A stretch of DNA of 32,000 nucleotides, from contig JAFAER010000267.1 of assembly GCA_023423895.1 (NCBI GenBank), forward strand, positions 1-32,000, given 5' to 3'. Source of the DNA: Pseudomonadota bacterium (GTDB lineage Bacteria > Myxococcota_A > Polyangia > Polyangiales > Polyangiaceae). The notes below the pieces were generated by a model. It had not been told where the DNA came from and did not search any database. It saw only the letters and a list, made by a program, of their open reading frames with translations. Below are positions 2,056 to 12,803 of the stretch, piece by piece (position 1 is the stretch's first letter; each line of letters begins with the position of its first letter). The position numbers were made by a program, and so were the translations under genes.

Positions 2056-2080
2056 ACGGCCACGTCGACGAGGCGTCGGT

Positions 2081-2803
2081 TCACCTGCAGTCGATCGGCC
2101 GGCCGGGCCGGTTCGTCACAGTGCACGCCGTCTTGCAGGTGATCGATTTGGTGAAGACGCCGCCCTGACAGACGAGCTCCGTCTTGCCGTCGACGGAGCA
2201 GACGACCTGTCCCGGGATCCCGCACGGATCGCCGGCGAGGGAGAGCGTCTCGTCGCACGAAGGCGTCTCACCCTTGTTGAAGCACCCGTATTGCCCCCGG
2301 CAGTAGCGATACAGGGCGAACCTGCCGTCGCGGCAGACGAGCATGTGCTTCTGGTCGCCGCCGCACGCGACCGCGCCCTGCGTCTTGCACGGGTCGTCTT
2401 TCTCGGCGACGGAGGTGTCGCACGAGACCGCGCGCCCGAGCATGGAGCACCCAGCCTTGCCGCGGCATTCGAGGTAGGGCTCGAACTTCCCGCCCTTGCA
2501 TACGAGCGCCCGCTTGTTGTCGGTCGAGCATGCGTATTCGTCTTCTTCACCCATGCACGGGTCGCCGACGTTCGCGACGGACGTATCGCAGTTGGCGTGG
2601 TCCTGGTACTTGCCGCAGCCGGTCGGGCCCGCACACGCGATCTCGACGTACGTGTCGCCCCGGCACACGAGCGCGTGCTGCTTGTCGAGACACGTGGACT
2701 CGGCGCCTTTGCAGCTTCCGCCGGCCTTCTTCCCACACGCAGCGGTGAGCGTCGCCGTCCCTAGCGCGAACGCGAAGACGACGACGACCTGCCTGTTCCT
2801 CAT
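2081..2803 (-). CDS. cysteine-rich modular lipoprotein (about four ~50-aa Cys modules)
   Basis: Signal peptide with lipobox (LTAAC). A repeated pattern recurs four times: C..(K/D)....LVC(R/K/Q)(G/D)G.(F/Y)......C.G..GC........CD.S.A..GDPC. Confidence 0.7.
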   Translation of the reverse strand: MRNRQVVVVFAFALGTATLTAACGKKAGGSCKGAESTCLDKQHALVCRGDTYVEIACAGPTGCGKYQDHANCDTSVANVGDPCMGEEDEYACSTDNKRALVCKGGKFEPYLECRGKAGCSMLGRAVSCDTSVAEKDDPCKTQGAVACGGDQKHMLVCRDGRFALYRYCRGQYGCFNKGETPSCDETLSLAGDPCGIPGQVVCSVDGKTELVCQGGVFTKSITCKTACTVTNRPGRPIDCR

Positions 2804-2870
2804 ATCGGTCCTTTGCGCTCTCGCCGTGATGCACGTTCGCCGAGGAGGGCCCGCTGACGTCTCGCGTCGG

Positions 2871-4181
2871 TCAGGCGCTGCCCGGATCCGGACAAGCGTA
2901 GAACGCCCCCAGTACTTTCGTCATCATTGCGGGATCTTTCGTCCCGCCGAGCTCCCGGATCGAGTGCATGCTGAGCATCGGGTTGCCCACGTCCACGGTG
3001 CGGATGCCGAGGAGCGTCGACGCGATCGGGCCGATGGTGCTGCCGCAGGGGAGATCCGTGCGGTGCGCGTAGTGCTGGACGGGCACCTCGGCCTTGGCGC
3101 AGAGGTCGCGGAACAGGACCGCCGTGGGCCCCGAGGTGGCGTACCGCTGCTGGGCGTTGATCTTGATGACCGGCCCGCCGTTCAGCACCGGCTTGTGGCG
3201 TGCCTCGTGGCGCCCTTCGTAGTTGGGGTGGACCGCGTGGGCCATGTCGGCCGAGACGCAGAGCGAGCCCGCGAGCGCGCGATGGTAGTCCTCGCGTGAG
3301 CCTCCGCGACCCGTCACGATGCGCTCCAGGGCGCGCGGCAGCGCACCGGAATGGGCGCCGTAGGCGCTCTCGCTGCCGACCTCTTCGTGGTCGAACAGGG
3401 CGACGAACGGGACGACGTCGCCTGCGCCGGCTTTCGGAGCTGCATCGATGAGCGCGCGAAGCCCGGCGTGGCACATCGCGAGGTTGTCGAGCCGTCCCGA
3501 GAAGATCATCTCCTCGTCGCGACCGCCGAGCGTGGGAGGGACCACGTCGAAGAGCATCAGGTCGCTGCCGAGGATCGCGTCGCGGCCGACCTTCAGCTCG
3601 TCGGCGAGGAGCGCCATCAGATCTTTCGCGCCGTCCGAGGCGAGCCCGAGGATGGGAGCGAGGTGCTCCTGGCGATTCAGCTTGAGCCCGTCGTTGACGT
3701 CCCGATCAAGGTGAATGGCGAGCTGCGCGACGCGGAGCATCGGCCTCGAGAAGCGGACGAGCCGCGTTTCGACTCGCCCGTTCTCGCGCACGAACACGCG
3801 GCCGGCGAGCGAGAGATCGCGGTCGAGCCACGAGTTCAGCAGGACGCCGCCGTAAACCTCGACGCCGAGCTGGGCATAACCCTCTTTCTTGTACTCGGCG
3901 TTGGGCTTGAGCCGGAGGTTCGGGCTGTCGGTGTGCGCCCCGACGATCCGGAAGCCGGAGATGCGCTTGGTGTCCGGGATGACGAACGCGAAGATGCTCG
4001 TCCCGCCGTGGGGGAACATGTACCGGCCGGGCTCGAGGTCCGCCCAGGTATCGGTCTCGGCGATCGACTTGAAACCGGCGGCGGAAAGGCGCTCGGCGGC
4101 GCTCGAGACGGCGTGGAAGGGGGTCGGAGAAGCCCCGAGAAAAGCGAGCAGGTCCTGCAGGATCGGGTCGGTGGTCGTCAC
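2871..4181 (-). CDS. apeB: M18 family aminopeptidase (aspartyl aminopeptidase-like)
   Basis: 436 aa, full length. VGAHTDSPNLRLKP motif, later HEEVGS and SADMAHAVHPNY metal-ligand-type motifs characteristic of peptidase M18. Confidence 0.85.
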   Translation of the reverse strand: MTTTDPILQDLLAFLGASPTPFHAVSSAAERLSAAGFKSIAETDTWADLEPGRYMFPHGGTSIFAFVIPDTKRISGFRIVGAHTDSPNLRLKPNAEYKKEGYAQLGVEVYGGVLLNSWLDRDLSLAGRVFVRENGRVETRLVRFSRPMLRVAQLAIHLDRDVNDGLKLNRQEHLAPILGLASDGAKDLMALLADELKVGRDAILGSDLMLFDVVPPTLGGRDEEMIFSGRLDNLAMCHAGLRALIDAAPKAGAGDVVPFVALFDHEEVGSESAYGAHSGALPRALERIVTGRGGSREDYHRALAGSLCVSADMAHAVHPNYEGRHEARHKPVLNGGPVIKINAQQRYATSGPTAVLFRDLCAKAEVPVQHYAHRTDLPCGSTIGPIASTLLGIRTVDVGNPMLSMHSIRELGGTKDPAMMTKVLGAFYACPDPGSA

Positions 4182-4244
4182 GGTGCCCGGATCCTAGTCG
4201 AGCGAGGGTTGCGTGAGCAGCCGACGAACGCTAGTAACTCATGC

Positions 4245-4430
4245 ATGAGTGACGAGAACGCTCTGGCCAAGGAAATCCCGGCGGACGCGGCGAACCACGC
4301 GTTCGACCTGACGGCGATCGATCGCAACGGACGCGACCCTCTTGTCCCCGCGCCCGCGCCCGCGCGCGCAGCCGCCCACGCGGCGTTCAGCGTGCTCTGG
4401 TGGATCGAAGGCGACGAGACCTCGCGCTGA
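4245..4430 (+). CDS. small hypothetical protein (61 aa)
   Basis: ATG-initiated ORF filling the gap between two minus-strand genes. The third codon position is strongly G/C-biased, as in the real genes here. No recognisable domain. Confidence 0.3.
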   Translation: MSDENALAKEIPADAANHAFDLTAIDRNGRDPLVPAPAPARAAAHAAFSVLWWIEGDETSR

Positions 4431-4466
4431 CGGGCAAGCCGCCGCGCGCGAGCGCGAGGTCTGCGC

Positions 4467-5285
4467 TCACTTCTTCTTCTTCGTCTTGGCCTTGGCCTTC
4501 ACGGTCTTCTTGGGGACCGGCTTCTTCGAGACGGGCTTCTTCGCCGGCGCCTTGGCCGCGGGCTTCTTGGCGGCCGTTTTGGCTGCTGGCTTGGCGGCCG
4601 CTTTCGCCTTCGGCTTCACCTTCGCCGGCACTGGCTTGGCCTTCGCGGGCTCGGCCTTCGCCGGCTTCGCCTTTGCGGGCTCGGCCTTCGCCGGCTCGGC
4701 CTTTGCCGGCTTCGCCTTCGGGGGCTCGGCCTTCGGTGCGGGGGTCGGCTTCGTCAGCGCCTTCTTGCTAGGAGGCGCTGCTTTGACGGCCTTGGCCTTC
4801 TTCGGCGCCTCCTCCTCTTCCTCTTCTTCCTCCTCGACTTCAGGGGGCGGAGGCGGGCGCGGGGGAGGCGGCTTGCGCGGATCGGGCAGGTATTTGCTGA
4901 AGAAGGTCCGCATCGGCCCGAAGTACTTGTCGTTCCAGAGCTCGCGGTACTTCTCGCATTGGCCTTCGGGGATCTCGGTGTGGAGGACGGTCAGGCGGGT
5001 GCTTCCGCCGAGGGCCTCGAAGTGCACCTCCGCCCGCGAGTCCGACTCTTCCCGCGGAAAATCCGTGGTTCGCCAGCTCATGACGATGCGCCTTCCGAGG
5101 TCCAGCGTCACGAGCTTGCCCGTGACGTACCCGTTCAGCGCGGTGAAATTCCCGCCAACCTCGGAGTCGATCTTCGCCGCCCCGCCCGTCATCTCGCTGT
5201 GTTGCTCGGGGTTGAGCCACGCGAGATATAGCGTCGTGGGAGCCGCCGGGATCGTCGTCGAGACGCGGAGGGCCTCCTTCTTCAT
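4467..5285 (-). CDS. SRPBCC/AHSA1 (Aha1-like) domain protein fused to poly-Glu and histone-H1-like Lys/Ala/Pro-rich tail
   Basis: The N-terminal ~135 aa resemble Activator-of-Hsp90-ATPase-homolog/SRPBCC proteins (TTLYLAWLNPEQHSEMTGG.., ..RLTVLHTEIPEG). They are followed by PPPPRPPPPP, E10, then KAEPAKAKPAKA-type repeats ending KAKTKKKK. Confidence 0.8.
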   Translation of the reverse strand: MKKEALRVSTTIPAAPTTLYLAWLNPEQHSEMTGGAAKIDSEVGGNFTALNGYVTGKLVTLDLGRRIVMSWRTTDFPREESDSRAEVHFEALGGSTRLTVLHTEIPEGQCEKYRELWNDKYFGPMRTFFSKYLPDPRKPPPPRPPPPPEVEEEEEEEEEAPKKAKAVKAAPPSKKALTKPTPAPKAEPPKAKPAKAEPAKAEPAKAKPAKAEPAKAKPVPAKVKPKAKAAAKPAAKTAAKKPAAKAPAKKPVSKKPVPKKTVKAKAKTKKKK

Positions 5286-5516
5286 GACGAGCAGCGTAAC
5301 TCGCCCGACGAGAGGGAAGCTAAAATCTCGCGCACACTGCAGCTAATTCTGTGTCCGCTCGTCGGGACTCTCGCGGAGACGAGCCGAAGGCCCTCGAGCG
5401 AGGTATTTCGGGACACCCGAGGGATGGATATCGGGGCCCGCCTTCACCCGAGCGGCGGCCCTACCTCGGAGGGGACATCTTGGCGCCAGCGGCCGAAACA
5501 GGCCTATTTTCAGGCG

Positions 5517-5598
5517 GAAGTCAGGCGACTCGAACACCATACCTTGCGGTACGCACCGGGTAGCGGCCGGGCCCGCGACCATTCGCGGTTTGACTTCC
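5517..5598 (-). tRNA. tRNA-Ser(GCU)-like, class II, non-canonical
   Basis: Minus strand: acceptor GGAAGUC/GACUUCC, anticodon loop CCGCUAC on a 4-bp CCGG stem, variable hairpin UGCG-UAC-CGCA, T-loop UUCGAGU. C33 and short stems lower confidence. Confidence 0.5.
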
Positions 5599-5660
5599 AT
5601 AAGCAGATGTCCGGACGGCTCGTCCGGAGCAGGTCGCTGCGGGGGCCGGAGGGCATCGGT

Positions 5661-5733
5661 ACGGGGCGAGAGGATCGAACTCTCCTGTGCCTGCTCGTGA
5701 GGCAGGTGTCATCACCAGATGAGCGAGCCCCGC
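5661..5733 (-). tRNA. tRNA-Val(CAC)
   Basis: Acceptor GCGGGGC/GCCCCGU, anticodon arm CCUGC-CUCACGA-GCAGG, T arm GAGAG-UUCGAUC-CUCUC. The D arm is atypical (UCAUC-UGGU-GAUGA). Confidence 0.65.
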
Positions 5734-5828
5734 ATGGCTTCGAGACGTGACGGTCGGCGGTCTCTGGGAGTCGTCGCCCGGCTCGTGCCCGGCCTCGTGA
5801 TAGGCGGGGCGTCGGGTCGTCTCGAGGC

Positions 5829-5899
5829 TCCGGAGGAGGGAATTGCACCCCCACCCCAGCGGTTCAAAGCCGCGGATCCTGCTGTTGGAACACTCCGGA
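5829..5899 (-). tRNA. tRNA-Gln(UUG), G55 T-loop variant
   Basis: Acceptor UCCGGAG/CUCCGGA (7 bp), anticodon loop CUUUGAA, T arm GGGGG-UGCAAUU-CCCUC. Confidence 0.6.
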
Positions 5900-5925
5900 A
5901 TGGGTGGCTCAGCGAGTGAGCCGGT

Positions 5926-5993
5926 CGCTGCGGGCAGAGTCGAACTGCCTGGACCGCGCTCATGAGGCGCGCCCTCCTCCGAGGACCGCAGCG
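5926..5993 (-). tRNA. tRNA-Met(CAU) type, short D arm (68 nt)
   Basis: Acceptor CGCUGCG/CGCAGCG, anticodon arm CGCGC-CUCAUGA-GCGCG, T arm GGCAG-UUCGACU-CUGCC. The D arm is reduced to UCC-UCGGA-GGA. Confidence 0.6.
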
Positions 5994-6038
5994 GAGGTCC
6001 GCGCTCGACGTGTGCACGTGCGTGCGTGCTGGGCGAGA

Positions 6039-6108
6039 GCGGTGACCGAGAATCGCACTCGGATCTCGAGCGTGGCGTGCTCGGGTTCTGCTCTTGAACT
6101 ATCACCGC
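6039..6108 (-). tRNA. tRNA-Gly(GCC), G55 T-loop variant
   Basis: Acceptor GCGGUGA/UCACCGC, D arm GUUC-AAGAGCA-GAAC, anticodon arm CGAGC-ACGCCAC-GCUCG (C33), T arm CCGAG-UGCGAUU-CUCGG. Confidence 0.6.
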
Positions 6109-6137
6109 AGGATCGGGCCACGTGGAACCCGCGTCGA

Positions 6138-6210
6138 GCCGCCCGAGGGAATTGCACCCTCCTCGTTCCTCGCTACCAGTGAGGTGCCCCGCTGTCTGGG
6201 CGTGGGCGGC
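6138..6210 (-). tRNA. tRNA-Thr(GGU), G55 T-loop variant
   Basis: Acceptor GCCGCCC/GGGCGGC, D arm GCCC-AGACAGCG-GGGC, anticodon loop CUGGUAG, T arm GAGGG-UGCAAUU-CCCUC. Confidence 0.6.
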
Positions 6211-6223
6211 ACGTGAAATAGTC

Positions 6224-6270
6224 GCTCGTCCTCGAGTCATTGCCTCACGAGGCCCCTCGTGAGGACGAGC
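6224..6270 (-). terminator. composite hairpin in the rsr 3' region (terminator or processing structure)
   Basis: Plus-strand gctcgtcctc (6224-6233) pairs with gaggacgagc (6261-6270), enclosing the inner stem acgagg/cctcgt. On the minus strand it lies ~70 nt after the rsr stop and is followed by GACUAUUUCACGU. Confidence 0.3.
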
Positions 6271-6341
6271 AGGTCGACGGCAACGAGGGACGTGCGGTCG
6301 ACATGACCGCCACGGGCATTTGCCGTAGGTTCGAGAGCCGA

Positions 6342-7955
6342 TCACACGGCGATTGACTCGATCGCCTGGAGAAACGCCGCTCCGTCCGCGTCGTCGCTCG
6401 CGAAGGAGGCGACGAGGTCGAAGACGGCATCGGAGAAACCTCCGACGTTCAACACGTCGGAGCGGGTCTGCACTTGCGTCGTCGCGTACGGTTGGAGGTC
6501 CACGAGAACGAGCTTCGCGCGCGGGTTGCTCGCGCGGAGTCGGTCCCACTCCTCCGCCATCACGGTTCCGCGCGTCGCGCTGCTGCCGGAGTCGGCGGAG
6601 CGCGGCGCCAGCCTGAAGTCAGCCCAGGACTGGTTGTCGGAGACAAAGACGACCACGTCGGGCGCGGTTCCACGAGCGTTGAGCCACCGTAGCGGCGCAG
6701 CGCACGAGGTCCCGCCGCTCGGGAGCGACGACAGCAACTCGGCATTGGTGACGACCGAGTCGAGTGCGTTCAGCGGACGCGGAAGCTGCACGACGTCGTC
6801 CGAGAAGGGCAGCACCGTCGCGTGCTCGTTCTTGCGAAGGAGCGCGGCGGTCGCCAGCGCGGCGACGTCGATGCAGCGGACCTTCGAGGTGGCCGTCCCT
6901 CGATGGCCTGTGACGGGCGAGTGCATCGACCCGGAGACGTCGGGACAGAGCGCAACGGAGCCCGGGATCGCGGGCACGTTGCCGACGGCGTGCTCGACGG
7001 CGCGAGCCAGCGCGCTGACGATTACCGGCGGCATGCTCTGCTCGACGGCGCGATACGTTGCGAGCAGCTGATACGGGAGCGTGCGCGAGCGCCTCACGGC
7101 GTCGGCGTCCGAGAGCTGCTCGGCGACGAGCTCGACGATCGCGGGGTCGGTGAAGACGCCGTGACGGTAGAGCGTGTTCAGATTTTGGCGGAGCTGGTTG
7201 AACGTCATCTTCTTCGCCAGCTCGGTCCAGTGCGCCGCGCGCAGAGGGAGAGCGGTAAGCATCTCGAACGGCACGTCGGGCAGCGGCTTCCGATCGTTCT
7301 TCTTCCAGGCCTCGAAGGCCTGGGTGAGCGGCGGCAGCTTCGAGCAGTCCACGTTCTTTCCGATGAGGTAGCCGTAGAGGGCCTCACGGACGGCATCGGC
7401 TTCGCCCTTCCCCCCGACGGCGTTCCGCGGGGGAGGACGAACCATCTTGATGACGTCCGACATGGACGGGCTCTGACCGATGGACTGGCGGAAGATGGTC
7501 TCGGGGCTCCTTGCTGCGAACCATTCGCGGAGAGCCCGTTTGGGCGCCGACCCGAACGACTTGCGGCCGGTGACTCCAGAACGGACGATCGCGACGAACG
7601 CACGCAACATCCGCGCATCGTCGATGACGCGCGGGAACACGCGGAGCATGAGCGAGACGTCGTGGGCGGCGAGCCAGGCGACGAGGAACGCGGGGACGTC
7701 CTTCATCCTGCCGTGCTCACGACAGTAGACAGCCGTCTTCGCGACGAGCTCGGGGCGGACGGCGCTCGCGAGCTCCGCGACCTTGTCGAGCTGCTGCTGA
7801 CCGGTCGCGTAGAACGTGCGATGGAACGTCCCGGTCACCGCATACTGCGCGAGCGCATGCTCGGGCGAGAGCGCGTATGCCGGACCTCCGGCCTCGTTGC
7901 GAGCATCGGCCACGGGCGCTTTGCGTGCGTGACCAAAAAGATGTGTGTTCGGCAT
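6342..7955 (-). CDS. rsr: Ro60 ortholog: TROVE domain plus vWA domain with MIDAS motif
   Basis: 537 aa. The N-terminal region is typical of TROVE/Ro60 (NEAGGPAYALSPEHALAQYAVTGTFHRTFYA). The C-terminal vWA has a DVSGSM MIDAS-like motif. AAGGAG Shine-Dalgarno sits 6 nt upstream of the ATG. Confidence 0.85.
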   Translation of the reverse strand: MPNTHLFGHARKAPVADARNEAGGPAYALSPEHALAQYAVTGTFHRTFYATGQQQLDKVAELASAVRPELVAKTAVYCREHGRMKDVPAFLVAWLAAHDVSLMLRVFPRVIDDARMLRAFVAIVRSGVTGRKSFGSAPKRALREWFAARSPETIFRQSIGQSPSMSDVIKMVRPPPRNAVGGKGEADAVREALYGYLIGKNVDCSKLPPLTQAFEAWKKNDRKPLPDVPFEMLTALPLRAAHWTELAKKMTFNQLRQNLNTLYRHGVFTDPAIVELVAEQLSDADAVRRSRTLPYQLLATYRAVEQSMPPVIVSALARAVEHAVGNVPAIPGSVALCPDVSGSMHSPVTGHRGTATSKVRCIDVAALATAALLRKNEHATVLPFSDDVVQLPRPLNALDSVVTNAELLSSLPSGGTSCAAPLRWLNARGTAPDVVVFVSDNQSWADFRLAPRSADSGSSATRGTVMAEEWDRLRASNPRAKLVLVDLQPYATTQVQTRSDVLNVGGFSDAVFDLVASFASDDADGAAFLQAIESIAV

Positions 7956-8050
7956 GACGACTCCTTTCCGAGCGAGGGCGTGTTCGGCCGTGCGCGTGCT
8001 CGAGCGCGCGACCGTGTGATTCCGGTCGATGAATGAACGAGAGACGAGGC

Positions 8051-8123
8051 GTTCCCGACGGGATTCGAACCCGTGTTCCTGGATTGAGAGCCCAGAGTCC
8101 TTGGCCGCCTAGACGACGGGAAC
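8051..8123 (-). tRNA. tRNA-Glu(CUC)
   Basis: Acceptor GUUCCCG/CGGGAAC, D arm GUC-UAGGCGGCCAAG-GAC, anticodon arm CUGGG-CUCUCAA-UCCAG, T arm ACGGG-UUCGAAU-CCCGU. Confidence 0.85.
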
Positions 8124-8135
8124 AGTGGAGATGAA

Positions 8136-8262
8136 GGTCGTCCGAGTGACTCGAGCATCGGTGTTGACTTGGGAATCGAACCCAAACCGTCAGCCTGGAA
8201 AGCTGATGTCCTGACCATTTGGACGAGTCGAGTGCGTGTGAGCTCGGGTCGAGCGGACGACC
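8136..8262 (-). ncRNA. stem-clamped tRNA-like RNA (unit 0), Y-RNA-like candidate
   Basis: A perfect 9-bp closing helix GGUCGUCCG (8262-8254) / CGGACGACC (8144-8136). Next comes a 3x3 internal loop (CUC vs ACU), then helix 2 GACCCGAGC/GCUCGAGUC (8 of 9 bp) and an ACACGCA linker. The stem encloses D, anticodon (UCC) and T arms but no proper acceptor stem. Confidence 0.55.
8162..8233 (-). tRNA. tRNA-Gly(UCC)-like core of unit 0 (acceptor stem degenerate)
   Basis: D arm GUCC-AAAUGGUCA-GGAC, anticodon arm UCAGC-UUUCCAG-GCUGA, T arm UUGGG-UUCGAUU-CCCAA. Only 3-4 of 7 acceptor positions can pair. Confidence 0.4.
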
Positions 8263-8266
8263 TGGA

Positions 8267-8337
8267 TGCAGCGGCTGGAGTCGCACCAGCGTCTCGAGCG
8301 TATGAAGCTCGCGGGGTGGCTCCTCCCCCACGCTGCG
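8267..8337 (-). tRNA. tRNA-Met(CAU) type with C1xA72 mismatch, G55 T-loop variant
   Basis: 5' strand CGCAGCG vs 3' strand CGCUGCA (C1/A72 unpaired, an initiator-like feature). D arm GGGG-AGGAGCCA-CCCC, anticodon arm CGAGC-UUCAUAC-GCUCG, T arm GCUGG-UGCGACU-CCAGC. CCA is encoded. Confidence 0.65.
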
Positions 8338-8382
8338 ATGACGCTCCGAAGCCGAGAGCAGTGCTCTCGGTCTCCAGAGGGC

Positions 8383-8453
8383 ACCTCCGCCGGGAGTCGA
8401 ACCCGGGAGAACGAGCTTCGGATGCTCGACCCTGATTCCGTCAGGACGAAGGT
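8383..8453 (-). tRNA. tRNA-Arg(CCG)
   Basis: Acceptor ACCUUCG/CGGAGGU (one G-U), anticodon arm CGAGC-AUCCGAA-GCUCG, T arm CCGGG-UUCGACU-CCCGG. Confidence 0.75.
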
Positions 8454-8484
8454 AGATGATGGAGACAGATGCTGAATGTTTGGC

Positions 8485-8555
8485 CTCCCCGCTAGGAATC
8501 GAACCTAGACAACCGGCTTCGTAGACCGATGCATGGAATCCACCACGACGAGGAG
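8485..8555 (-). tRNA. tRNA-Arg(ACG)
   Basis: Acceptor CUCCUCG/CGGGGAG, anticodon arm UCGGU-CUACGAA-GCCGG, T arm CUAGG-UUCGAUU-CCUAG. CCA is encoded. Confidence 0.75.
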
Positions 8556-8576
8556 AAACGAAAATCGAGCGACAGA

Positions 8577-8664
8577 GGAAGAAAGAGGTCTCGAACCCCA
8601 CACCCTCGGTGAAGGGTGCGCTTTGCTTTCGAAGCAAGCCTGGCTCCCAGCCAGTTTTTCTCCC
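8577..8664 (-). tRNA. tRNA-Ser(CGA), class II
   Basis: Acceptor GGGAGAA/UUCUUCC, D arm CUGG-CUGGGAG-CCAG, anticodon arm CUUGC-UUCGAAA-GCAAA, long variable hairpin CACCCU-UCACCG-AGGGUG, T-loop UUCGAGA. Confidence 0.7.
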
Positions 8665-8671
8665 GAGAAGT

Positions 8672-8743
8672 GGTCGGTGAGGGAATCGAACCCCCTACGC
8701 AGAGCTTTTCAAACTCCCGCTCTACCATTCGAGCTTACCGACC
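8672..8743 (-). tRNA. tRNA-Phe(GAA)
   Basis: Acceptor GGUCGGU/ACCGACC, D arm GCUC-GAAUGGUA-GAGC, anticodon arm GGAGU-UUGAAAA-GCUCU, T arm GGGGG-UUCGAUU-CCCUC. Confidence 0.9.
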
Positions 8744-8752
8744 CTGTGACAC

Positions 8753-8790
8753 CGTTGGCGCGTTGCGCCCCGTTGCGCCTCGTTGCGCGT
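8753..8790. repeat. four tandem copies of CGTTG(C/G)CG at 8-10-bp spacing in a tRNA spacer
   Basis: cgttggcg cgttgcgc cc cgttgcgc ct cgttgcgc, read directly between tRNA-Phe and tRNA-Ser(GGA). Confidence 0.7.
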
Positions 8791-8815
8791 CGCGGACACG
8801 TCAGGGCCGCGGAGA

Positions 8816-8902
8816 GGAAGGCAGAGGACTCGAACCCCACGCGGACGATGGCCGCGCGAATCGCGTTCCAGACGATCTCCGCCCCTGGCGGATTTGCCTT
8901 CC
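8816..8902 (-). tRNA. tRNA-Ser(GGA), class II
   Basis: Acceptor GGAAGGC/GCCUUCC, anticodon arm AUCGU-CUGGAAC-GCGAU, variable hairpin CGCGG..CCGCG, T-loop UUCGAGU. Confidence 0.75.
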
Positions 8903-8955
8903 GTGTTCGTGTATCGATTCGTTCGAGCTCGCACGGCGTGCGGAACGAGCGCGGT

Positions 8956-9029
8956 CAGGACGGCAGGATTCGAACCTGCGGTCTCCAGTCCCCCAGACTG
9001 GCGCTTTTGCCTGGCTAAGCTACGCCCTG
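8956..9029 (-). tRNA. tRNA-Pro(GGG)
   Basis: Acceptor CAGGGCG/CGUCCUG (C1-G72), D arm GCUU-AGCCAGGCAA-AAGC, anticodon arm CCAGU-CUGGGGG-ACUGG, T arm GCAGG-UUCGAAU-CCUGC. Confidence 0.85.
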
Positions 9030-9077
9030 AGATGCCGGCGCGTGACGGCTTCGTGAATGGGTGGATGTCGCGCGAGG

Positions 9078-9114
9078 CGAGAAGAATAGGAGGTCCAGTT
9101 TCACGTCTTGGACC
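9078..9114 (-). terminator. candidate intrinsic terminator after the HNH gene
   Basis: Minus-strand hairpin GGUCCA-(11 nt)-UGGACC followed by UCCUAUUCUUCU. A second 8-bp hairpin (GUCGUGGC/GCCACGAC) lies just upstream. Confidence 0.35.
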
Positions 9115-9170
9115 AGGACGCGGGAGCGTGTGTCGTGGCGCGGGCCACGACGCATCGATGCGTCGACGTC

Positions 9171-9773
9171 TCAGGCAGAGAGCGAAGCCGGCGCAGTGTA
9201 GCCGTCGCAGTACGGCTGCCAGACATCCGGCAGCTCACTCTCGTCGAGACGGATCGGCGGCACGACGGGCAGCGAGGTCGGCTTCTTCGGCTGCCGCAGC
9301 AGCTTCATGCCGGCCTGCTCAGGCGTGCGGCTCCCCTTGCGATCATTGCAGGCGTAGCAGGAGGTCACGATGTTCTCCCAGACGGTCTTGCCTCCCCGAA
9401 CACGCGGGATGACGTGGTCGTAGTTCAGTTGCTTCATCGGCTTCTTCTCGCCGCAGTACTGGCAACGGAACTTGTCCCGCGTGAACACGTTCAACCGGGA
9501 GAAGCGGACCGACTGCTTCGTCGACACCGACCCCTTCTTCAGGCGGACGACGGCGGGGGCGAGCATCGCGAAGCTCGGGGCGCGGAGCTCCGCGTCCCAG
9601 GTCTCGATGACTTCGACCTTGTCGAGGTAAGCCAGCACGACGGCGCGCTGCCAGGGAATGATCTTGTGAGGCGCCATCCAGGGGGTCAGCATCAGCGTTT
9701 GCATGGGGATCACCGTTTCTTTCTCGTTCTCACGGCTCGTTCTCCTTTCGGAGGTGTTGAAGGAGTCGTGCAC
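9171..9773 (-). CDS. HNH endonuclease (COG1403-like, ~180 aa class)
   Basis: CQYCG..(N)LNYDHVIPRVRGGKTVWENIVTSCYACNDRKG is a classic HNH/zinc-ribbon core. The N-terminal MQTLMLTPWMAPHKIIPWQRAV matches the usual start of this family, so ATG 9704 is the likelier start. Confidence 0.85.
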   Translation of the reverse strand: MHDSFNTSERRTSRENEKETVIPMQTLMLTPWMAPHKIIPWQRAVVLAYLDKVEVIETWDAELRAPSFAMLAPAVVRLKKGSVSTKQSVRFSRLNVFTRDKFRCQYCGEKKPMKQLNYDHVIPRVRGGKTVWENIVTSCYACNDRKGSRTPEQAGMKLLRQPKKPTSLPVVPPIRLDESELPDVWQPYCDGYTAPASLSA

Positions 9774-9847
9774 GATGCACGACGACAGAAGCGCAAAGGG
9801 ATGGACGTGTGACCGGACGCTGAGGCGGCGCGTGGATGGCGCGCAGT

Positions 9848-9931
9848 GTCACCGGAGGGAGTCGAACCCTCAAACTCCATGCGGAGCCCAGCATCTCGGG
9901 CTGGTGTGTATTCCAATTCCACCACAGTGAC
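9848..9931 (-). tRNA. tRNA-Leu(GAG), class II
   Basis: Acceptor GUCACUG/CGGUGAC, anticodon arm CCAGC-CCGAGAU-GCUGG (C33), variable hairpin CUCC-GCAU-GGAG, T arm GAGGG-UUCGACU-CCCUC. Confidence 0.75.
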
Positions 9932-9998
9932 GTATTCGCGTGACGTATCGCGTCCGGTCGCTCCCGGCGGATGGCCGAGGTGCGATGGGGACGTTGGT

Positions 9999-10073
9999 AC
10001 CGACGGAGGGATTCGAACCCTCACAACACACAGTTTCTGAGACTGCGGCCTCTACCAGTTGGGCCACGTCGGC
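9999..10073 (-). tRNA. class-I-sized tRNA-like gene with CAG (Leu-type) anticodon
   Basis: Acceptor GCCGACG/CGUCGGU, anticodon arm GCAGU-CUCAGAA-ACUGU, 7-nt variable region GUGUUGU (no long arm), T arm GAGGG-UUCGAAU-CCCUC. The D stem is imperfect. CCA is encoded. Confidence 0.5.
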
Positions 10074-10117
10074 TCGAGGCGTGCTCCGCGTCCGCTCGAG
10101 GCGTGCGCGTGCGTGGT

Positions 10118-10191
10118 CTGTGCAGGAGGATTCGAACCTCCAATCCCTCCGACCCGAACGGAGTGCTCTAGCCAGGTTGAGCCATGCACAG
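10118..10191 (-). tRNA. tRNA-Pro(CGG)
   Basis: Acceptor CUGUGCA/UGCACAG, D arm GCUC-AACCUGGCUA-GAGC, anticodon arm CUCCG-UUCGGGU-CGGAG, T arm GGAGG-UUCGAAU-CCUCC. CCA is encoded. Confidence 0.9.
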
Positions 10192-10233
10192 AGGACCAGC
10201 GAAGCCCGACGGGAGCTCGAGCGTGGCTGGGGT

Positions 10234-10303
10234 GGACAAGTCGGGAGTCGCACCCGATCCATCTGCTTGCAAGGCAGACGTCTCCCCTCGGAGACAAGCC
10301 CGT
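10234..10303 (-). tRNA. tRNA-Ala(UGC)-like element with no pairable acceptor stem
   Basis: Anticodon arm UCUGC-CUUGCAA-GCAGA and T arm UCGGG-UGCGACU-CCCGA are clear. The D region is a 6-bp hairpin GUCUCC-GAGG-GGAGAC. The two ends carry the same-sense GACAAG instead of complementary strands. The right boundary is approximate. Confidence 0.35.
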
Positions 10304-10354
10304 GATGATGATGACGGCGGTCCGTCGCTGGAATCGCAGCGGTCCGTGCCCGGT

Positions 10355-10426
10355 GCGGCGCGCAGGGATCGCACCTGCCTCCTCCTGCTCGTCATGCAGG
10401 CGCAGTCGCTAGACTGCCAGCGCCGC
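10355..10426 (-). tRNA. tRNA-Val(GAC), G55 T-loop variant
   Basis: Acceptor GCGGCGC/GCGCCGC, D arm GCAG-UCUAGCGA-CUGC, anticodon arm CCUGC-AUGACGA-GCAGG, T arm GCAGG-UGCGAUC-CCUGC. Confidence 0.8.
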
Positions 10427-10489
10427 TCTCGCTGTTCGACCCCAGGGTGCAAACGTGCACACGTTTGTACGTCTGTCCCTCGCGTCGGT

Positions 10490-10561
10490 GGATCACCTGC
10501 GAATCGAACGCAGTGCGGGCTCCTTATCAGAGAGTCCAGGGTGACCAACCCGTCGTGATCC
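10490..10561 (-). tRNA. tRNA-Ile(GAU)
   Basis: Acceptor GGAUCAC/GUGAUCC, anticodon loop CUGAUAA on stem CUCU/GGAG, T arm CUGCG-UUCGAUU-CGCAG. Confidence 0.7.
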
Positions 10562-10603
10562 CGTGCTCCGTAGAGCTCGCGTTGCTGCCCGAGCGACGCG
10601 GGA

Positions 10604-10671
10604 GAGCCGAGAGGGAGTTGAACCCTCGCGCACCGTGTTGCAGACGGCGATCCTCGCCGGAGAATCGGCTC
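10604..10671 (-). tRNA. tRNA-Cys(GCA)
   Basis: Acceptor GAGCCGA/UCGGCUC, short D arm, anticodon arm GCCGU-CUGCAAC-ACGGU, T arm GAGGG-UUCAACU-CCCUC. Confidence 0.7.
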
Positions 10672-10738
10672 GAAGAAGTGGGCGCAGTTCCTCGTGGGCC
10701 GACGTCACGTGAGCGTCGGCGGTGGGGGGCTGCGCGGA

Positions 10739-10808
10739 GCGGGCAGAGGGAGTCGCACCCTCATTGTCAGTTTGGAAGACTGCGGTCCTGCTGTTGGACG
10801 ATGCCCGC
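10739..10808 (-). tRNA. tRNA-Gly(UCC), G55 T-loop variant
   Basis: Acceptor GCGGGCA/UGCCCGC, D arm GUCC-AACAGCA-GGAC, anticodon loop CUUCCAA, T arm GAGGG-UGCGACU-CCCUC. Confidence 0.75.
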
Positions 10809-11241
10809 GAGTGGTGGTGGTGTGTGAATGGTGTGGCCGGAGATGGGGGAGCAAAAGTGGGGATGCGGTTCCGAAATCGCAAGTCTCGACGAAGGTGATG
10901 AAGACATGGTGCTCGGCGGCGGATCGCTGCCTCTGCACCGTCGGCACATTGGAGCCGCCCGTGAGGGCTGCTCCCGTTCGCCCCGCAATAGGGAAGTTCA
11001 CCGAAGTGGTCTCCCGAGAGCGCCCGGCTGGAGTCTGCGGGGCGCTCTCTGACTTCCCCTATGCCATCGCTAGATCGGTCGCCCGACCGTCGCTACCTTA
11101 GGACCGTTATAGTTACGGATGTAGTCCTCATCGGCATTCGAGACCGACGACGCTTGCTCGTGTCGTGTGAGATCCTTCTTGGTGTGCGGACGACGTCGCG
11201 TACGACGACGTCGTCGAAGTGAATGGATGAAGGTGGTTGGT
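10809..11241 (-). ncRNA. structured non-tRNA insert in the array (candidate ncRNA containing a 23S rRNA H69-H71-like segment)
   Basis: No tRNA fits. There is a three-way structure at 10988-11062: AUAGGGGAAGU/ACUUCCCUAU closing GAGAGCGCCC/GGGCGCUCUC and a CAC-UUCG-GUG hairpin. A T-arm-like hairpin UCGGU-CUCGAAU-GCCGA lies at 11131-11147, plus the rRNA-identical 29-mer. Orientation is assumed from the surrounding array. Confidence 0.4.
11090..11118 (-). other. 29-nt perfect copy of the conserved 23S rRNA helix 69/70 segment (contains the I-CeuI homing site)
   Basis: Minus strand reads CCGUAACUAUAACGGUCCUAAGGUAGCGA. From memory this is identical to E. coli 23S about 1908-1936 (H69 loop with U1911/1915/1917) and includes TAACTATAACGGTCCTAAGGTAGCGA. 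The downstream GUCGGG..GACC..GAUGGC loosely echoes H71. Confidence 0.75.
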
Positions 11242-11313
11242 GGAGCCGGCCGGACTCGCACCGGCAGCCTCCTCGATGCCATCGAGGCGCTCTCCTCGCT
11301 GAGCTACGGCCCC
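11242..11313 (-). tRNA. tRNA-Ala(GGC), G55 T-loop variant
   Basis: Acceptor GGGGCCG/CGGCUCC with G3-U70, D arm GCUC-AGCGAGGA-GAGC, anticodon arm CCUCG-AUGGCAU-CGAGG, T arm GCCGG-UGCGAGU-CCGGC. CCA is encoded. Confidence 0.8.
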
Positions 11314-11353
11314 GTTCGTTTCGTGGCGTGGTCTTACTGTTCTATGCGCGGGT

Positions 11354-11423
11354 GGAGCGACGGGGAATCGCACCCCGATCCCTGCAGTGCGAATGCAGCG
11401 TTCTCCTGTTGAACTATCGCCCC
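11354..11423 (-). tRNA. tRNA-Ala(CGC), G55 T-loop variant
   Basis: Acceptor GGGGCGA/UCGCUCC with G3-U70, D arm GUUC-AACAGGA-GAAC, anticodon arm CUGCA-UUCGCAC-UGCAG, T arm CGGGG-UGCGAUU-CCCCG. Confidence 0.8.
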
Positions 11424-11480
11424 GTGCCATGATCCGTTCGTCGACGGCGACACGACGTTCATGACGAGAATGGGAGGGGC

Positions 11481-11550
11481 AGGCCGCGAAGGAATCGAAC
11501 CCTCTCTCCGGGGGTTGGAATCCCGGCTGGTCGCCATGACTCTACGGCCT
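11481..11550 (-). tRNA. tRNA-Trp(CCA) (alternative reading Gly-UCC)
   Basis: Acceptor AGGCCGU/GCGGCCU with A1-U72 and G73. The best anticodon-arm fold is CGGGA-UUCCAAC-CCCCG (A31xC39). T arm GAGGG-UUCGAUU-CCUUC. Confidence 0.6.
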
Positions 11551-11595
11551 ATCTTGTGTGCGGGAACATGGGGATGGCGATCCCTCGACGTTGGC

Positions 11596-11666
11596 GACCC
11601 ATACCGAAATCGAATCGGTCTCACGCCGTAGACAGCGGCGCTGCGACACCAGTCGCATCATGGGCC
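11596..11666 (-). tRNA. tRNA-Asp(GUC)
   Basis: Acceptor GGCCCAU/AUGGGUC, anticodon arm CGCCG-CUGUCUA-CGGCG, T arm ACCGA-UUCGAUU-UCGGU. The D region is a GCGAC-UGGU-GUCGC hairpin. CCA is encoded. Confidence 0.75.
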
Positions 11667-11702
11667 AGAAGCTCTGGAACCTTGGTACTTCTTCTTGCGG
11701 GC

Positions 11703-11773
11703 GTCCCCGGCAGGAGTCGAACCTGCGTCGGCTGGTTTAGAAGACCAGCGCCTATCCGCTCGGCCACGAGGAC
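11703..11773 (-). tRNA. tRNA-Arg(UCU)
   Basis: Acceptor GUCCUCG/CGGGGAC, anticodon arm CUGGU-CUUCUAA-ACCAG, T arm GCAGG-UUCGACU-CCUGC. Close paralog of the next gene. Confidence 0.85.
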
Positions 11774-11810
11774 GTGCGGTCAGCGACGGCGGCCGAAGCG
11801 TGGTGTGGGC

Positions 11811-11881
11811 GTCCCCGGCAGGAATCGAACCTGCGTCGACCGGCTCAGGAGACCGGAGCCTGTCCGCTCGGCCACGAGGAC
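11811..11881 (-). tRNA. tRNA-Arg(CCU)
   Basis: Same acceptor and D arm as the previous gene. Anticodon arm CCGGU-CUCCUGA-GCCGG, T arm GCAGG-UUCGAUU-CCUGC. Confidence 0.85.
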
Positions 11882-11928
11882 CAGACCATGCGTTGACCGA
11901 GAGCCGAGCGAGGTGACGCGCGGCCGGG

Positions 11929-12000
11929 GTAGCGTACGGGAATCGCACCCGCCTCCACTGAGTCACAATCAGTCCTCGTCACTAGACGAGTAACGCTACC
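11929..12000 (-). tRNA. tRNA-His(GUG) with encoded G-1, G55 T-loop variant
   Basis: Acceptor GUAGCGU/ACGCUAC preceded by G(-1) opposite C73. D arm CUCG-UCUAGUGA-CGAG, anticodon arm ACUGA-UUGUGAC-UCAGU, T arm GCGGG-UGCGAUU-CCCGU. Confidence 0.85.
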
Positions 12001-12086
12001 GTGTATTCTTGTGCTCATCGAGGTTGTTCGTGTCAACCCGCCTTTGGAGCGAATCGTTCGCTTTCGATGATTGTCGATTGGTTGGT

Positions 12087-12157
12087 GCTCCCGATCGGAA
12101 TCGAACCGATACCTTCCGCTTGAAAGGCGGAGATCCTGACCACTAGATGACGGGAGC
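12087..12157 (-). tRNA. tRNA-Glu(UUC)
   Basis: Acceptor GCUCCCG/CGGGAGC, anticodon arm UCCGC-CUUUCAA-GCGGA, T arm AUCGG-UUCGAUU-CCGAU. CCA is encoded. Confidence 0.85.
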
Positions 12158-12407
12158 GAGGAATGAAGCGAGCCCCGGACGAGCCGAGGGATGTCGTCGC
12201 AGGCGCTCGCGCTTTCGGCTCGTTGGCCGAAGGGCGAGCTTCGGGCGGCACCGGTCACGCGCGAGCGAACGAGAGCGCGCGCCGGTACGGAAGAGGAGCG
12301 CCTCGTCGGACGCGGGCCCGCGAGGCGTGGAGCTCAGATGTGAGCTCGGCAAGCTCGCCGGCGTCGGGGAGAGGTGTGTGGGACCGACGCGCGAGCTGCT
12401 GGAGAGG

Positions 12408-12623
12408 TTTCTCACCCGAGTGAAAAAGCCTTTGGATTGAACCATCTTCAAGGATGAGGCCTTTACCAATTAGGCTATCGCTGCATTTGGTCCGGTCGTG
12501 ACCGGGCGCTCTCGTATGAGAGCCGACGATGGACGTCGCGGTGACGAGCACCGTGTGCAGCGAGTCGGATTCGAACCGACAATTTCTCGATTGCGTGTAG
12601 GGCATCTTCGGGCGGGTGAGAAA
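12408..12623 (-). ncRNA. circularly permuted tRNA-like RNA, unit 1 (YrlA/Y-RNA-like candidate)
   Basis: Minus strand read 5'->3'. Closing strand UUUCUCACCCG (12623-12613), CCC, helix-2 strand GAAGAUGCC, then CUACACGCAAU linker. T arm GUCGG-UUCGAAU-CCGAC (12580-12564), acceptor 3' strand UCGCUGC (12563-12557), and a 72-nt hairpin-rich cap. Acceptor 5' strand GCAGCGA (12484-12478), D arm GCC-UAAUUGGUAAA-GGC, hairpin UCAUC-CUUGAA-GAUGG. It ends GGCUUUUUC, ACU, closing strand CGGGUGAGAAA (12418-12408). Confidence 0.6.
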
Positions 12624-12726
12624 GATCGTGGGCGCTCGAGCCAAGCTCAGCGGAGCGGCGAGCGGCGAAGGCGAAGGCGAGCTCGGGACGATGACGGAGG
12701 AGCCCGCGTCCGAGCGCGGCGTGGGT

Positions 12727-12803
12727 CCCTCGTGATGGAATCGAACCACCTGCCGAAAGGCACCGGGTTACAGCCGGCTGCTCCGCCATGGAGCGAACGA
12801 GGG
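12727..12803 (-). tRNA. tRNA-Tyr(GUA), class II
   Basis: Acceptor CCCUCGU/ACGAGGG, D arm GCUC-CAUGGCG-GAGC, anticodon arm GCCGG-CUGUAAC-CCGGU, variable hairpin GCC-UUUC-GGC, T arm GGUGG-UUCGAUU-CCAUC. Confidence 0.85.

Follow-up and report, generated by a model that had tools for sequence, protein, structure and literature searches.

A Ro60 (rsr) gene and putative Y RNA genes within a long tRNA array on a myxobacterial scaffold

The stretch of DNA analyzed here, 32,000 nucleotides of contig JAFAER010000267.1 (referred to as the window), comes from an 86-kb metagenome scaffold (ENA ERZ28599135, scaffold_66). The closest genomes are metagenome-assembled genomes (MAGs) labelled Labilithrix sp., Myxococcales or Polyangiaceae. 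In this soil myxobacterium, an rsr gene encoding an ortholog of Ro60 lies within a long array of tRNA genes, all on the minus strand, together with four modules resembling Y RNAs and a gene for an HNH endonuclease. Ro60 is a major human autoantigen; to our knowledge, its function in bacteria is known from only two or three model species, in which it is tied to the Rtc operon or to PNPase. Each of the components found here – Ro60/Rsr, tRNA-like Y RNAs, and long tRNA arrays with HNH genes – is known, and it is their combination that appears to be new. In the literature searched, there was no report of rsr or Y RNAs within tRNA arrays, nor of the mutual exclusion of rtcR and tRNA genes described below. 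Loci from other genomes are designated by L numbers; L003–L010 are the sister loci of the window.

The rsr open reading frame (ORF) is intact, encoding 537 aa, and has a G+C fraction of 0.86 at third positions. A sequence-only reading of the window had named its product a Ro60 ortholog, from a TROVE domain and a von Willebrand A (vWA) domain with a metal-ion-dependent adhesion site (MIDAS), and had proposed a domain search as the check, with failure to support TROVE as the outcome that would count against it. Pfam matched both vWA_Ro60 (E = 8.7e-15) and TROVE (E = 8.5e-8, a partial match), and the assignment is borne out by the MIDAS alignment and the fold as well. The family phrog_850, annotated as "RNA-binding protein", matches over the full length (residues 16–519, E = 4.7e-39). 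In phmmer searches the protein matches Deinococcus radiodurans Rsr (2NVO, E = 6e-16); human and Xenopus Ro60 and a Thermus phage Ro60 are also matched. The MIDAS residues DVSGSM, GGT and SDN align with DVSGSM, GGT and TDN of 2NVO, and are invariant among 34 homologues. An AlphaFold2 model (predicted local distance difference test score 82, predicted template-modelling score 0.79) was compared to the PDB with Foldseek, and the top 13 matches were all Ro60, Rsr or TROVE structures. The template-modelling score was 0.73 to Xenopus Ro60 (1YVP) and 0.73–0.74 across 1YVP and 9NFA (Xenopus and human), over the full length.

The protein thus has the ring-plus-vWA build of D. radiodurans Rsr, which acts with Yrn1 and PNPase (RYPER), but sequence identity to it is only ~20–25%. 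The NCBIfam Rsr equivalog NF041674 was not reached (72.4 bits against a cut-off of 900 bits), and the product is therefore best regarded, from sequence and model, as a real Ro60 ortholog of a divergent subfamily with predicted RNA binding. The same subfamily is present in many Pseudomonadota, Acidobacteriota and others, at 47–52% identity.

ARAGORN identified 34 tRNA genes, all on the minus strand, with 5 at 5658–6210 and 29 at 8048–14164. Three further cloverleaves were missed by ARAGORN or are marginal: a Ser-GCU-like gene (5513–5598), an Asp-GUC-like gene (11590–11664) and Ala-UGC (10231–10301). One ARAGORN call, 8160–8232, is the core of a Y-like module and was not counted as a tRNA. This leaves 36 tRNA or tRNA-like genes in 5513–14164 (8.65 kb), a density of ~4.2 per kb, with all 20 amino acids represented. 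Lys-UUU is the first gene of the array. Six of the genes are downstream of rsr and 30 are upstream, all co-oriented with it, which confirms the earlier counts of six and about thirty. It qualifies as a tRNA array unit as published (PMC4758250), for which 20 tRNA genes and a density of 2 per kb are the minimum.

Long tRNA arrays have been described in cyanobacteria, mycobacteria, Firmicutes and Acidithiobacillus (PMC8421152, PMC5966550, PMC12803027, PMC4758250). The window array resembles them in number (20 or more co-oriented tRNA genes), in density (over 2 per kb), in serving almost every amino acid, in the divergence of its tRNA sequences, and in containing or adjoining an HNH gene. Long tRNA arrays are most often accompanied by an embedded HNH gene (PMC4758250, PMC5966550, PMC8421152, PMC12803027); homologues of the one in the window are found at the ends of Blastocatellia arrays. 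Linkage of cyanobacterial arrays to the RNA-processing gene rtcB has also been reported (PMC8421152). A full-text term search of the same four papers found no mention of Ro60 or Y RNA genes inside an array, or of Myxococcota. Unlike the published arrays, the window array also has a mimic of helix 69 of 23S rRNA, described below. The spacer after the HNH gene (9078–9146, minus strand) is 82–92% conserved in six sister loci and contains small GC hairpins.

Four gaps between the tRNA genes contain T-arm motifs, and each is occupied by a Y-RNA-like module (A–D, Table 1) on the rsr strand. Module D is 0.18 kb upstream of rsr, and modules A–C are 4.5–5.4 kb upstream, between tandem tRNA genes. The sequence-only reading had the number of modules and their side of rsr right, and only its distance range of 0.2–7 kb has to be corrected, to 0.18–5.4 kb. 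In all four modules the two ends form a 7-bp terminal stem (UCGUCCG or UCACCCG with CGGACGA or CGGGUGA), which encloses a 3x3 internal loop, a second stem and an invariant ACACGCA; a CACUCGG in the 3' strand is also invariant. In modules A–C these are followed by a T arm and a 7-bp acceptor-like stem that is closed by a variable insert of a few to ~100 nt, then by UA, a D arm, one nucleotide, and a 5-bp arm with a 6–7-nt loop. The order in YrlA is T arm, closed stem, D arm (PMC4201824), and modules A–C have this layout, with the T arm, closed acceptor-like stem-loop and D arm held within an end-to-end stem.

The structure was examined in an alignment of 18 modules (A1), including homologues from the sister loci. 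RNAalifold predicts all six helices from A1 unaided. Standard pairs occupy 93.8% of the cells; the figure drops to 77% when columns are shuffled and to 48% or less when partners are slid. Compensatory double changes are present in 23 of the 35 pairs and in each of the six helices; none of 500 shuffles reached that count of pairs.

Rfam searches of 5200–15800 found no Y RNA family, either at the gathering threshold or at E ≤ 5, and a covariance model (R1) was therefore built from the module alignment, with only full-length matches that include the terminal stem being counted. Full modules score 96–133 bits with R1. They were found only in array-bearing sister loci, on the rsr strand, with 3–4 modules per locus. 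Partial matches within arrays (model positions 38–135) were rejected; they join the T arm of one tRNA to the D arm of the next, as at the Arg-Arg junction at 11731–11834. Partial matches to the tRNA-like core were also found 0.1–0.9 kb downstream of rsr in many loci with no array, which is the canonical position of YrlA. When a 1.2-kb piece was searched alone, the Rfam YrlA model gave a sub-threshold match at 12866–12954, in module A, spanning model positions 28–81 only; the part to which it aligns is precisely the T arm, closed stem and D arm. Judged from these sequence features, the four modules are Y-RNA-like and are predicted ligands of Rsr. The published survey of YrlA RNAs dropped matches overlapping tandem tRNAs, kept those within 4 kb of rsr, and found few in delta-proteobacteria (PMC4201824) – filters that explain why modules like these would escape notice.

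Module D shares the terminal stem and the motifs UCGUCCG..ACACGCA..UCACUCGGACGA with the other three, and its core has the order D arm, anticodon-like arm, T arm. In Yrn1, too, an anticodon-like arm lies between D-like features and a T arm (PMC4201824), and module D resembles Yrn1 in this order, with the terminal stem replacing the acceptor stem. ARAGORN reads the core as Gly-UCC in the window, Leu-CAG in L003, Asp-GUC in L004 and Arg-CCU in L009. Because the "anticodon" differs between sister loci, the core is evidently not a decoding tRNA.

The sequence-only reading had also remarked that rsr lacks its usual Rtc partners. With RtcR, RtcB and RtcA from a related locus as queries, tblastn found no match in the window, and Pfam found no Rtc gene among its main ORFs. 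RtcR itself combines a CARF domain with a sigma-54 activator; the sole sigma-54 activator in the window (29273–31177) has an FHA domain, not an RtcR domain. In L003–L010 there was no tblastn match to RtcR, and none to RtcB or RtcA within 10 kb on either side. This remark has turned out to be the most informative part of that reading, given the distribution of rtcR among related loci. Eighty genome loci encoding Ro60 relatives were fetched, and 74 of these had enough upstream sequence for rtcR and tRNA genes to be counted. rtcR without a co-oriented tRNA gene in the 400 nt upstream of rsr was found in 61 of the 74, and tRNA genes directly upstream without rtcR in 11; two had neither, and none had both. 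Within this subfamily of Ro60, rtcR and a tRNA gene directly upstream of rsr exclude each other. RtcB is encoded in 51 and RtcA in 26 of the 80 loci. The 11 loci with upstream tRNA genes belong to the Labilithrix-like clade, another Polyangiales MAG, two Bryobacterales and one Phycisphaerales.

The best-known relative of this arrangement is the rsr-yrlB-yrlA-rtcB-rtcA operon of Salmonella Typhimurium, under the control of RtcR (PMC4201824, PMC7790460). There, too, tRNA-like Y RNA genes share a strand with the gene for a Ro60 ortholog, and tRNA damage is a functional theme common to both. The Salmonella-type layout, rtcR-rsr-Y-rtcB(-rtcA), is that of the 61 related loci with rtcR. The window differs from it in having no RtcR, RtcB or RtcA in 32 kb, and in having four putative Y RNA genes, three of them at a distance of 4.5–5.4 kb among tRNA genes. 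With tRNA genes on either side of it, rsr is presumably outside sigma-54/RtcR control. In this lineage the array stands where most other bacteria have the RNA-repair genes and their regulator beside Ro60.

Seven Labilithrix-like MAGs (L003–L007, L009 and L010), whose Ro60 proteins are 68–87% identical, carry the arrangement of the window: 21–32 tRNA genes in near-identical order, the HNH gene, and 2–4 Y modules. The downstream flank, which encodes the AHSA1-like protein and the M18 peptidase, is the same in these seven MAGs and in a short contig (L008), making eight sister loci in total. This constancy indicates that the array is an old, fixed chromosomal feature of the clade and not a recent insertion. 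In Labilithrix luteola (L011, 58% identity), rtcR-rtcB-rtcA is upstream of rsr, with four tRNA genes and an HNH gene downstream.

Acidobacteriota MAGs (Bryobacterales and Blastocatellia) carry arrays of 24–32 genes beside rsr, with complete rtcB-rtcA in three of four loci. The layout is array(30)-rtcR-rsr-Y-rtcB-rtcA in L030 (5264–14569) and array(24)-rsr-rtcB(partial) in L017 (7345–12584). In L040 (2434–13303) and L041 (10001–19609) it is rsr-rtcB-rtcA-array-HNH, with arrays of 32 and 30 genes, respectively, and the closing HNH gene belongs to the same family as that of the window. Since whole arrays adjoin the repair operon in Acidobacteriota, the partnership of Ro60 with long tRNA arrays is recurrent. 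The window shows it at its extreme, with rsr inside the array and no Rtc genes left nearby.

Table 1. Features of the window, in order of position
Feature	Position	Strand	Remarks
Ser/Thr kinase, FGE-sulfatase-like protein, M18 aminopeptidase, AHSA1-like protein	within 87–5285		
tRNA genes Thr-GGU, Gly-GCC, Met-CAU, Gln-UUG, Val-CAC, class-II Ser-GCU-like (5513–5598)	5513–6210	-	downstream of rsr
Structured spacer, rsr stop to tRNA-Thr	6211–6341	-	10-bp helix with nested 6-bp helix; CGGCAA/UUGCCG pairing
rsr, Ro60 ortholog, 537 aa	6342–7955	-	TROVE ring and vWA with MIDAS; from domains and fold
AGGAG, putative ribosome-binding site	7961–7965	-	7 nt ahead of the rsr ATG; from sequence reading
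tRNA-Glu(CUC)	8048–8123	-	92 nt upstream of the rsr start
Module D	8138–8260	-	R1 46.7 bits, E = 6e-11; unpermuted tRNA-like core
tRNA block: Met, Arg-CCG, Arg-ACG, Ser-CGA, Phe, Ser-GGA, Pro-GGG	8263–9029	-	
HNH endonuclease	9171–9773	-	inside the array; HNH_5, E = 1.3e-17
tRNA block: Leu-GAG, Leu-CAG, Pro-CGG, Ala-UGC, Val-GAC, Ile-GAU, Cys, Gly-UCC	9846–10808	-	
Non-tRNA element resembling 23S rRNA	10935–11145	-	exact 29-mer core at 11090–11118
tRNA block: Ala-GGC, Ala-CGC, Trp, Asp-GUC-like (11590–11664), Arg-UCU, Arg-CCU, His, Glu-UUC	11238–12157	-	
Module B	12412–12619	-	YrlA topology; R1 124.6 bits
tRNA genes Tyr, Thr-CGU, Asn, Gln-CUG, Lys-CUU, Lys-UUU	12722–14164	-	interleaved with Y modules
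Module A	12824–12988	-	YrlA topology; R1 123.8 bits; weak Rfam YrlA match at 12866–12954
Module C	13208–13356	-	YrlA topology; R1 128.4 bits
Long hairpin between tRNA-Gln(CUG) and tRNA-Asn	13436–13582	-	-78 kcal/mol, z -6.1
A+T-richer block CAAUACGACUUUGUC..UCAAUCAUGUUUCUCAAGCUUGGNAUCU	14194–14246	-	30–80 nt ahead of the first tRNA gene
RCC1-repeat and IgGFc-binding-like proteins, ComM/Mg-chelatase, RecA, acyltransferase, FHA-sigma54 activator, MatE protein	19–32 kb		

Several features bear on how the array is transcribed. An A+T-richer block just ahead of the first tRNA gene (14194–14246) is nearly invariant in all seven sister loci, and is a candidate promoter or operator of the array. In a scan against the sigma-70 consensus, the array yielded neither a promoter nor a convincing terminator, though the consensus is uninformative for a myxobacterium, and no site resembling an intrinsic terminator was found between rsr and the neighbouring tRNA genes. 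The hairpin at 13436–13582, ~95 nt with an 18-bp perfect base, folds better than any of 200 shuffles and is 81–91% conserved in L003, L005, L009 and L010; it is a candidate processing site for a double-strand-specific (RNase III-type) nuclease, or a separate small RNA. Soil metatranscriptome contigs of close relatives span multiple tRNA genes and spacers (8160–8538), and a further contig covers tRNA-Thr and the 3' region of rsr (6145–6293). These contigs have a low share (0.05–0.11 of sampled words, and 0.05–0.09 in RNA runs) and are unstranded, and are weakly compatible with multi-gene transcription.

Immediately upstream of the array, a segment of ~540 nt (14440–14980, minus strand) is conserved, with 68–78% identity in five sister loci. 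A promoter-like TTGCGC-N17-TATAGC marks the start of this segment, and a strongly conserved GC hairpin, GAGGCCGCCCGGGG..CCCCGAGGUGGCCUU, its end. The segment shows no reading-frame preference by tblastx and has no Rfam match, and is possibly a large non-coding RNA. A 201-aa ORF called in this area in the source annotation (14319–14924) was rejected as a gene. Its product is Arg/Pro-rich and of low complexity, with no family match, and all six frames are equally conserved by tblastx, so that the region is regarded as conserved non-coding DNA.

The array also contains an element that resembles 23S rRNA. Its 29-mer CCGUAACUAUAACGGUCCUAAGGUAGCGA is identical to the genuine large-subunit (LSU) rRNA gene in L056, at Rfam LSU positions ~1934–1962. 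It is followed by shortened, collinear look-alikes of the next 23S segments: GUCGGG..CCGA, CGCAGACUC and UGCGGGG. We take the 29-mer to be helix 69 of 23S rRNA and the classical homing site of I-CeuI, and the whole element to correspond to helices 69–71. The Rfam LSU model did not align to the element, and its identity was shown through the 29-mer instead. The element is better conserved (85–93% in L003, L004, L006 and L007) than the spacers around it. It could serve as a mimic of rRNA – a decoy, a binding site for an enzyme or protein, or a substrate of Ro – or be a relic of homing, and it is possibly more unusual than the presence of rsr in the array. In L004, ARAGORN called a permuted "tmRNA*" across tRNA-Ala and the 23S-like element (5467–6065), which is probably an artefact of tRNA-like pieces.

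The reading that we favour, with a probability of roughly 0.6, is that this locus is a chromosomal long tRNA array of a Labilithrix-like myxobacterium that carries a Ro60 kit – rsr and four Y RNA genes – together with a homing-type nuclease, all made as one or a few transcripts, so that Ro60 and its RNAs would be coupled to the supply of spare tRNAs. The single strand, the lack of terminators, the promoter-like block, the hairpin at 13436–13582, and an rsr gene bracketed by tRNA genes all point to one long transcription unit. Transcription would start at the block upstream of tRNA-Lys and run from ~14.2 kb to ~5.5 kb as one or few long precursors. RNase P, RNase Z and double-strand-specific cuts would free the tRNAs and Y RNAs, and the same cuts would free the rsr mRNA, which is bracketed by tRNA-Glu and by tRNA-Thr, 131 nt downstream. 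After the RNase P cut at tRNA-Thr, GC-rich hairpins past the stop codon may shield the new 3' end of this mRNA. The production of Ro60 and Y RNAs would then follow that of the spare tRNAs instead of depending on RtcR, the sensor of damaged tRNA by which rsr is controlled in most relatives, and sensing by RtcR and religation by RtcB and RtcA would be dispensed with locally.

The analysis shows the identity of the protein, the order and strand of the genes, RNA structures that are conserved and covary, the conservation among genomes, and the exclusivity with rtcR; co-transcription, processing, the binding of Ro60 to the four modules and the physiological trigger are inferred. RtcR switches on rsr-rtcBA upon tRNA halves or nicked tRNAs with cyclic phosphate ends (PMC7790460, PMC10159003). 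In Anabaena, a long tRNA array is an operon that is induced by translation inhibitors and co-regulated with an HNH gene and rtcB (PMC8421152), and HNH genes are embedded in other tRNA arrays (PMC12803027, PMC5966550). Under the same kind of stress, be it translational stress or a tRNA-cleaving attack, Ro-Y RNA particles would act on damaged or misfolded tRNA or rRNA. This step is modelled on Rsr/Y RNA/PNPase, in which Rsr with Y RNA tethers PNPase and helps to degrade or mature structured RNA (PMC4201824).

A number of observations weigh against this reading. The best match of the Rfam YrlA model (RF02553) is 18.7 bits (E = 0.68), against a gathering threshold of 69, and the published motif GNCGAAN0-1G is in none of 19 modules, with a one-base-longer variant, G-NN-CGA, in 12 of the 19. 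Many array tRNAs score low with the Rfam tRNA model (29–66 bits), and there are oddities in some, C33 in the Ser-like gene for instance; for these reasons, the array tRNAs are regarded as putative decoders. Low Rfam scores are usual for array tRNAs. The anticodons and the order of the array tRNAs are largely kept across the sister loci, at 68–87% Ro60 identity, which argues for selection on decoding identity. rtcB, rtcA and rtcR may lie elsewhere in the genome, as the window covers 32 kb of the 86-kb contig. Since the consensus promoter scan found nothing, rsr may have a promoter of its own within the 92-nt spacer. The 11 loci with upstream tRNA genes represent about 4–5 lineages, not 11 independent events. 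The metatranscriptome contigs are of low depth and could be DNA carry-over.

A more far-reaching view, which we consider possible and hold only tentatively, is that the array is a self-contained RNA-maintenance operon that replaces the Rtc branch, with YrlA-type Y RNAs that arose from junctions between neighbouring tRNAs. Spare tRNAs, Ro60, four Y RNAs and miniature 23S helices 69–71 would be made together, and Ro-Y particles would police or protect the array products and the ribosome during an attack on the translation apparatus. Damaged tRNA would be replaced and degraded, not sensed and religated. As to the origin of the Y RNAs, the modules hint at a junction of two neighbouring tRNAs with the spacer between them, the first tRNA giving the T arm and 3' acceptor strand, and the second its 5' acceptor strand, D arm and anticodon arm. 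This is suggested by the module spacings, which are tRNA-exact (0 nt separating the T stem from the acceptor-like stem, with 2 nt preceding the D arm and 1 nt following it), by the retention of an anticodon-like arm, and by the highly variable insert in the closed stem.

It is also conceivable, if rather doubtful, that the locus is a phage-derived counter-defence cassette – a domesticated piece of a large myxophage, or the origin of such pieces – whose main task would be to replace and clean up host tRNAs cut by anticodon nucleases when phages, plasmids and cells are in conflict, and not to manage stress in general. This explanation overlaps with the favoured one and differs from it mainly in origin and trigger. 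One ground for it is Myxococcus phage Mx1, whose TROVE protein is the best phage relative of the Ro60 protein (47% identity) and is encoded in a co-oriented tRNA region with HNH genes. However, Mx1 Ro60 is no closer to the window protein than is the Ro60 of unrelated phyla (47–52%). The HNH protein of the window is 42% identical to that of Mx1, and both genes are beside tRNA-Leu. A 183-kb viral contig (L084, IMGVR_UViG_3300034782_000062) likewise encodes a Ro60 (44% identity) amid 31 tRNA genes and a tmRNA gene (3411–3774) at 1429–18049, and its tRNA order partly matches that of the window (Lys-Lys-Asn/Gln, Tyr-His-Arg-Trp). The array has a G+C content of 0.61–0.65, slightly below the flanks (0.66–0.69), in a window that ranges from 61–71%. 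In published work, tRNA arrays are regarded as putative anti-defence systems (PMC12803027), and jumbo-phage tRNAs, RNA ligases and some TROVE proteins as RNA-repair adaptations (PMC7824862).

Against a phage origin, no integrase, capsid or other phage gene was found in the 32 kb, and the insertion site and downstream flank are constant in the eight sister loci, implying long vertical inheritance. PADLOC returned nothing for Ro60 and generic matches only for HNH. The phage regions are also looser than the window, with many small ORFs between tRNA genes, whereas the window array is in a conserved chromosomal context. R1 scores only about 20–33 bits in the regions from Mx1 and L084. The idea that Mx1 shares the Y-module family was tried and rejected, with R1 at only ~21 bits (L001, 3221–3324) and no recognizable form. 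That segment of Mx1 is an unannotated T arm, short closed stem and D arm between two tRNA genes, 11.6 kb upstream of the phage Ro60 gene, and is a possible YrlA-like RNA; L084 has a YrlA-like candidate at 13468–13546. In mycobacteriophage Alice, the Ro60 gene is outside the tRNA cluster, with only two tRNA genes, 3 kb away, so embedding is not common to all Ro60 phages.

The components could instead be juxtaposed without any coupling, with rsr and the Y RNA genes having landed in, or been engulfed by, an expanding, recombination-prone, HNH-associated array, and with rsr keeping its own regulation and usual housekeeping role. rsr does have its own ribosome-binding site and a 92-nt upstream spacer that contains a hairpin, arrays often gain and lose genes (PMC8421152), as the differences among L003–L010 also illustrate, and the downstream tRNA genes are missing in L008. 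We nevertheless judge this improbable: the arrangement has been kept while Ro60 identity fell to 68–87%, it is also found in four or more other lineages and in phages, the exclusivity with rtcR is strict, and the Y modules are interleaved with tRNA genes as far as 5.4 kb away instead of being clustered by rsr.

The spacer of 131 nt between the rsr stop and tRNA-Thr had been described in the sequence-only reading as densely structured. The helices were found where it had placed them, at 6224–6270, and the GUCGAC pair is present: a 10-bp helix forms between GCUCGUCCUC (6270–6261) and GAGGACGAGC (6233–6224), with CACGAGG/CCUCGUG nested at 6261–6246, and GUCGAC is at 6302–6297 and 6278–6273. A conserved CGGCAA/UUGCCG pairing joins 6320–6326 with 6277–6283. 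The fold energy is -53 kcal/mol, versus -45.5 ± 4 kcal/mol for shuffles (z -1.9), with 8 of 200 shuffles equally good, so the region is structured, though not exceptionally so at 66% G+C. L003, L004 and L009 retain the 10-bp helix with every pair intact (100% pairing), three of the pairs through compensatory changes. Half of the close relatives (L005, L006, L007 and L010) carry other GC-rich hairpins in the equivalent place. As the spacer has neither a U-tract nor Y-RNA motifs, its more likely role is that of a processing hairpin, or of one that shields the rsr mRNA at its 3' end. That the spacer is a transcription terminator or a fifth Ro60 ligand, as had been suggested, is very unlikely despite the stable nested helices and their compensatory changes, since no terminator-like site was called in it, co-oriented tRNA-Thr begins 14 nt past the 10-bp helix, Y-module motifs are absent (R1 9.4 bits), the hairpin in half of the sister loci is an unrelated one, and the z-score is modest.

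The flanks of the array consist of ordinary genes of a myxobacterial chromosome. The AHSA1/SRPBCC-domain protein (4467–5285, minus strand) has a long C-terminal tail of acidic residues followed by Lys/Ala/Pro repeats of the KPAKAEPAKA type, similar to histone H1. On the plus strand, 15591–22464 contains a run of ORFs with a weaker codon-position G+C signal than the remaining window. These encode a Cys-rich Stig1-like protein, two proteins that match no family, an RCC1-repeat protein and an IgGFc-binding-like protein; overlaps between several long ORFs make the gene calls there uncertain.

The association with long tRNA arrays is a second recurrent genomic partnership for Ro60, with either RtcR or tRNA genes upstream. 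It links two poorly understood systems – the purpose of spare tRNA arrays and the targets of bacterial Ro-Y particles. If the modules are Y RNAs, as their structure suggests, they would enlarge the Y RNA repertoire in delta-proteobacteria, where published searches found few, and discarding tandem-tRNA contexts would be seen to hide such RNAs. The modules may also offer intermediates for the evolution of tRNA-like Y RNAs.

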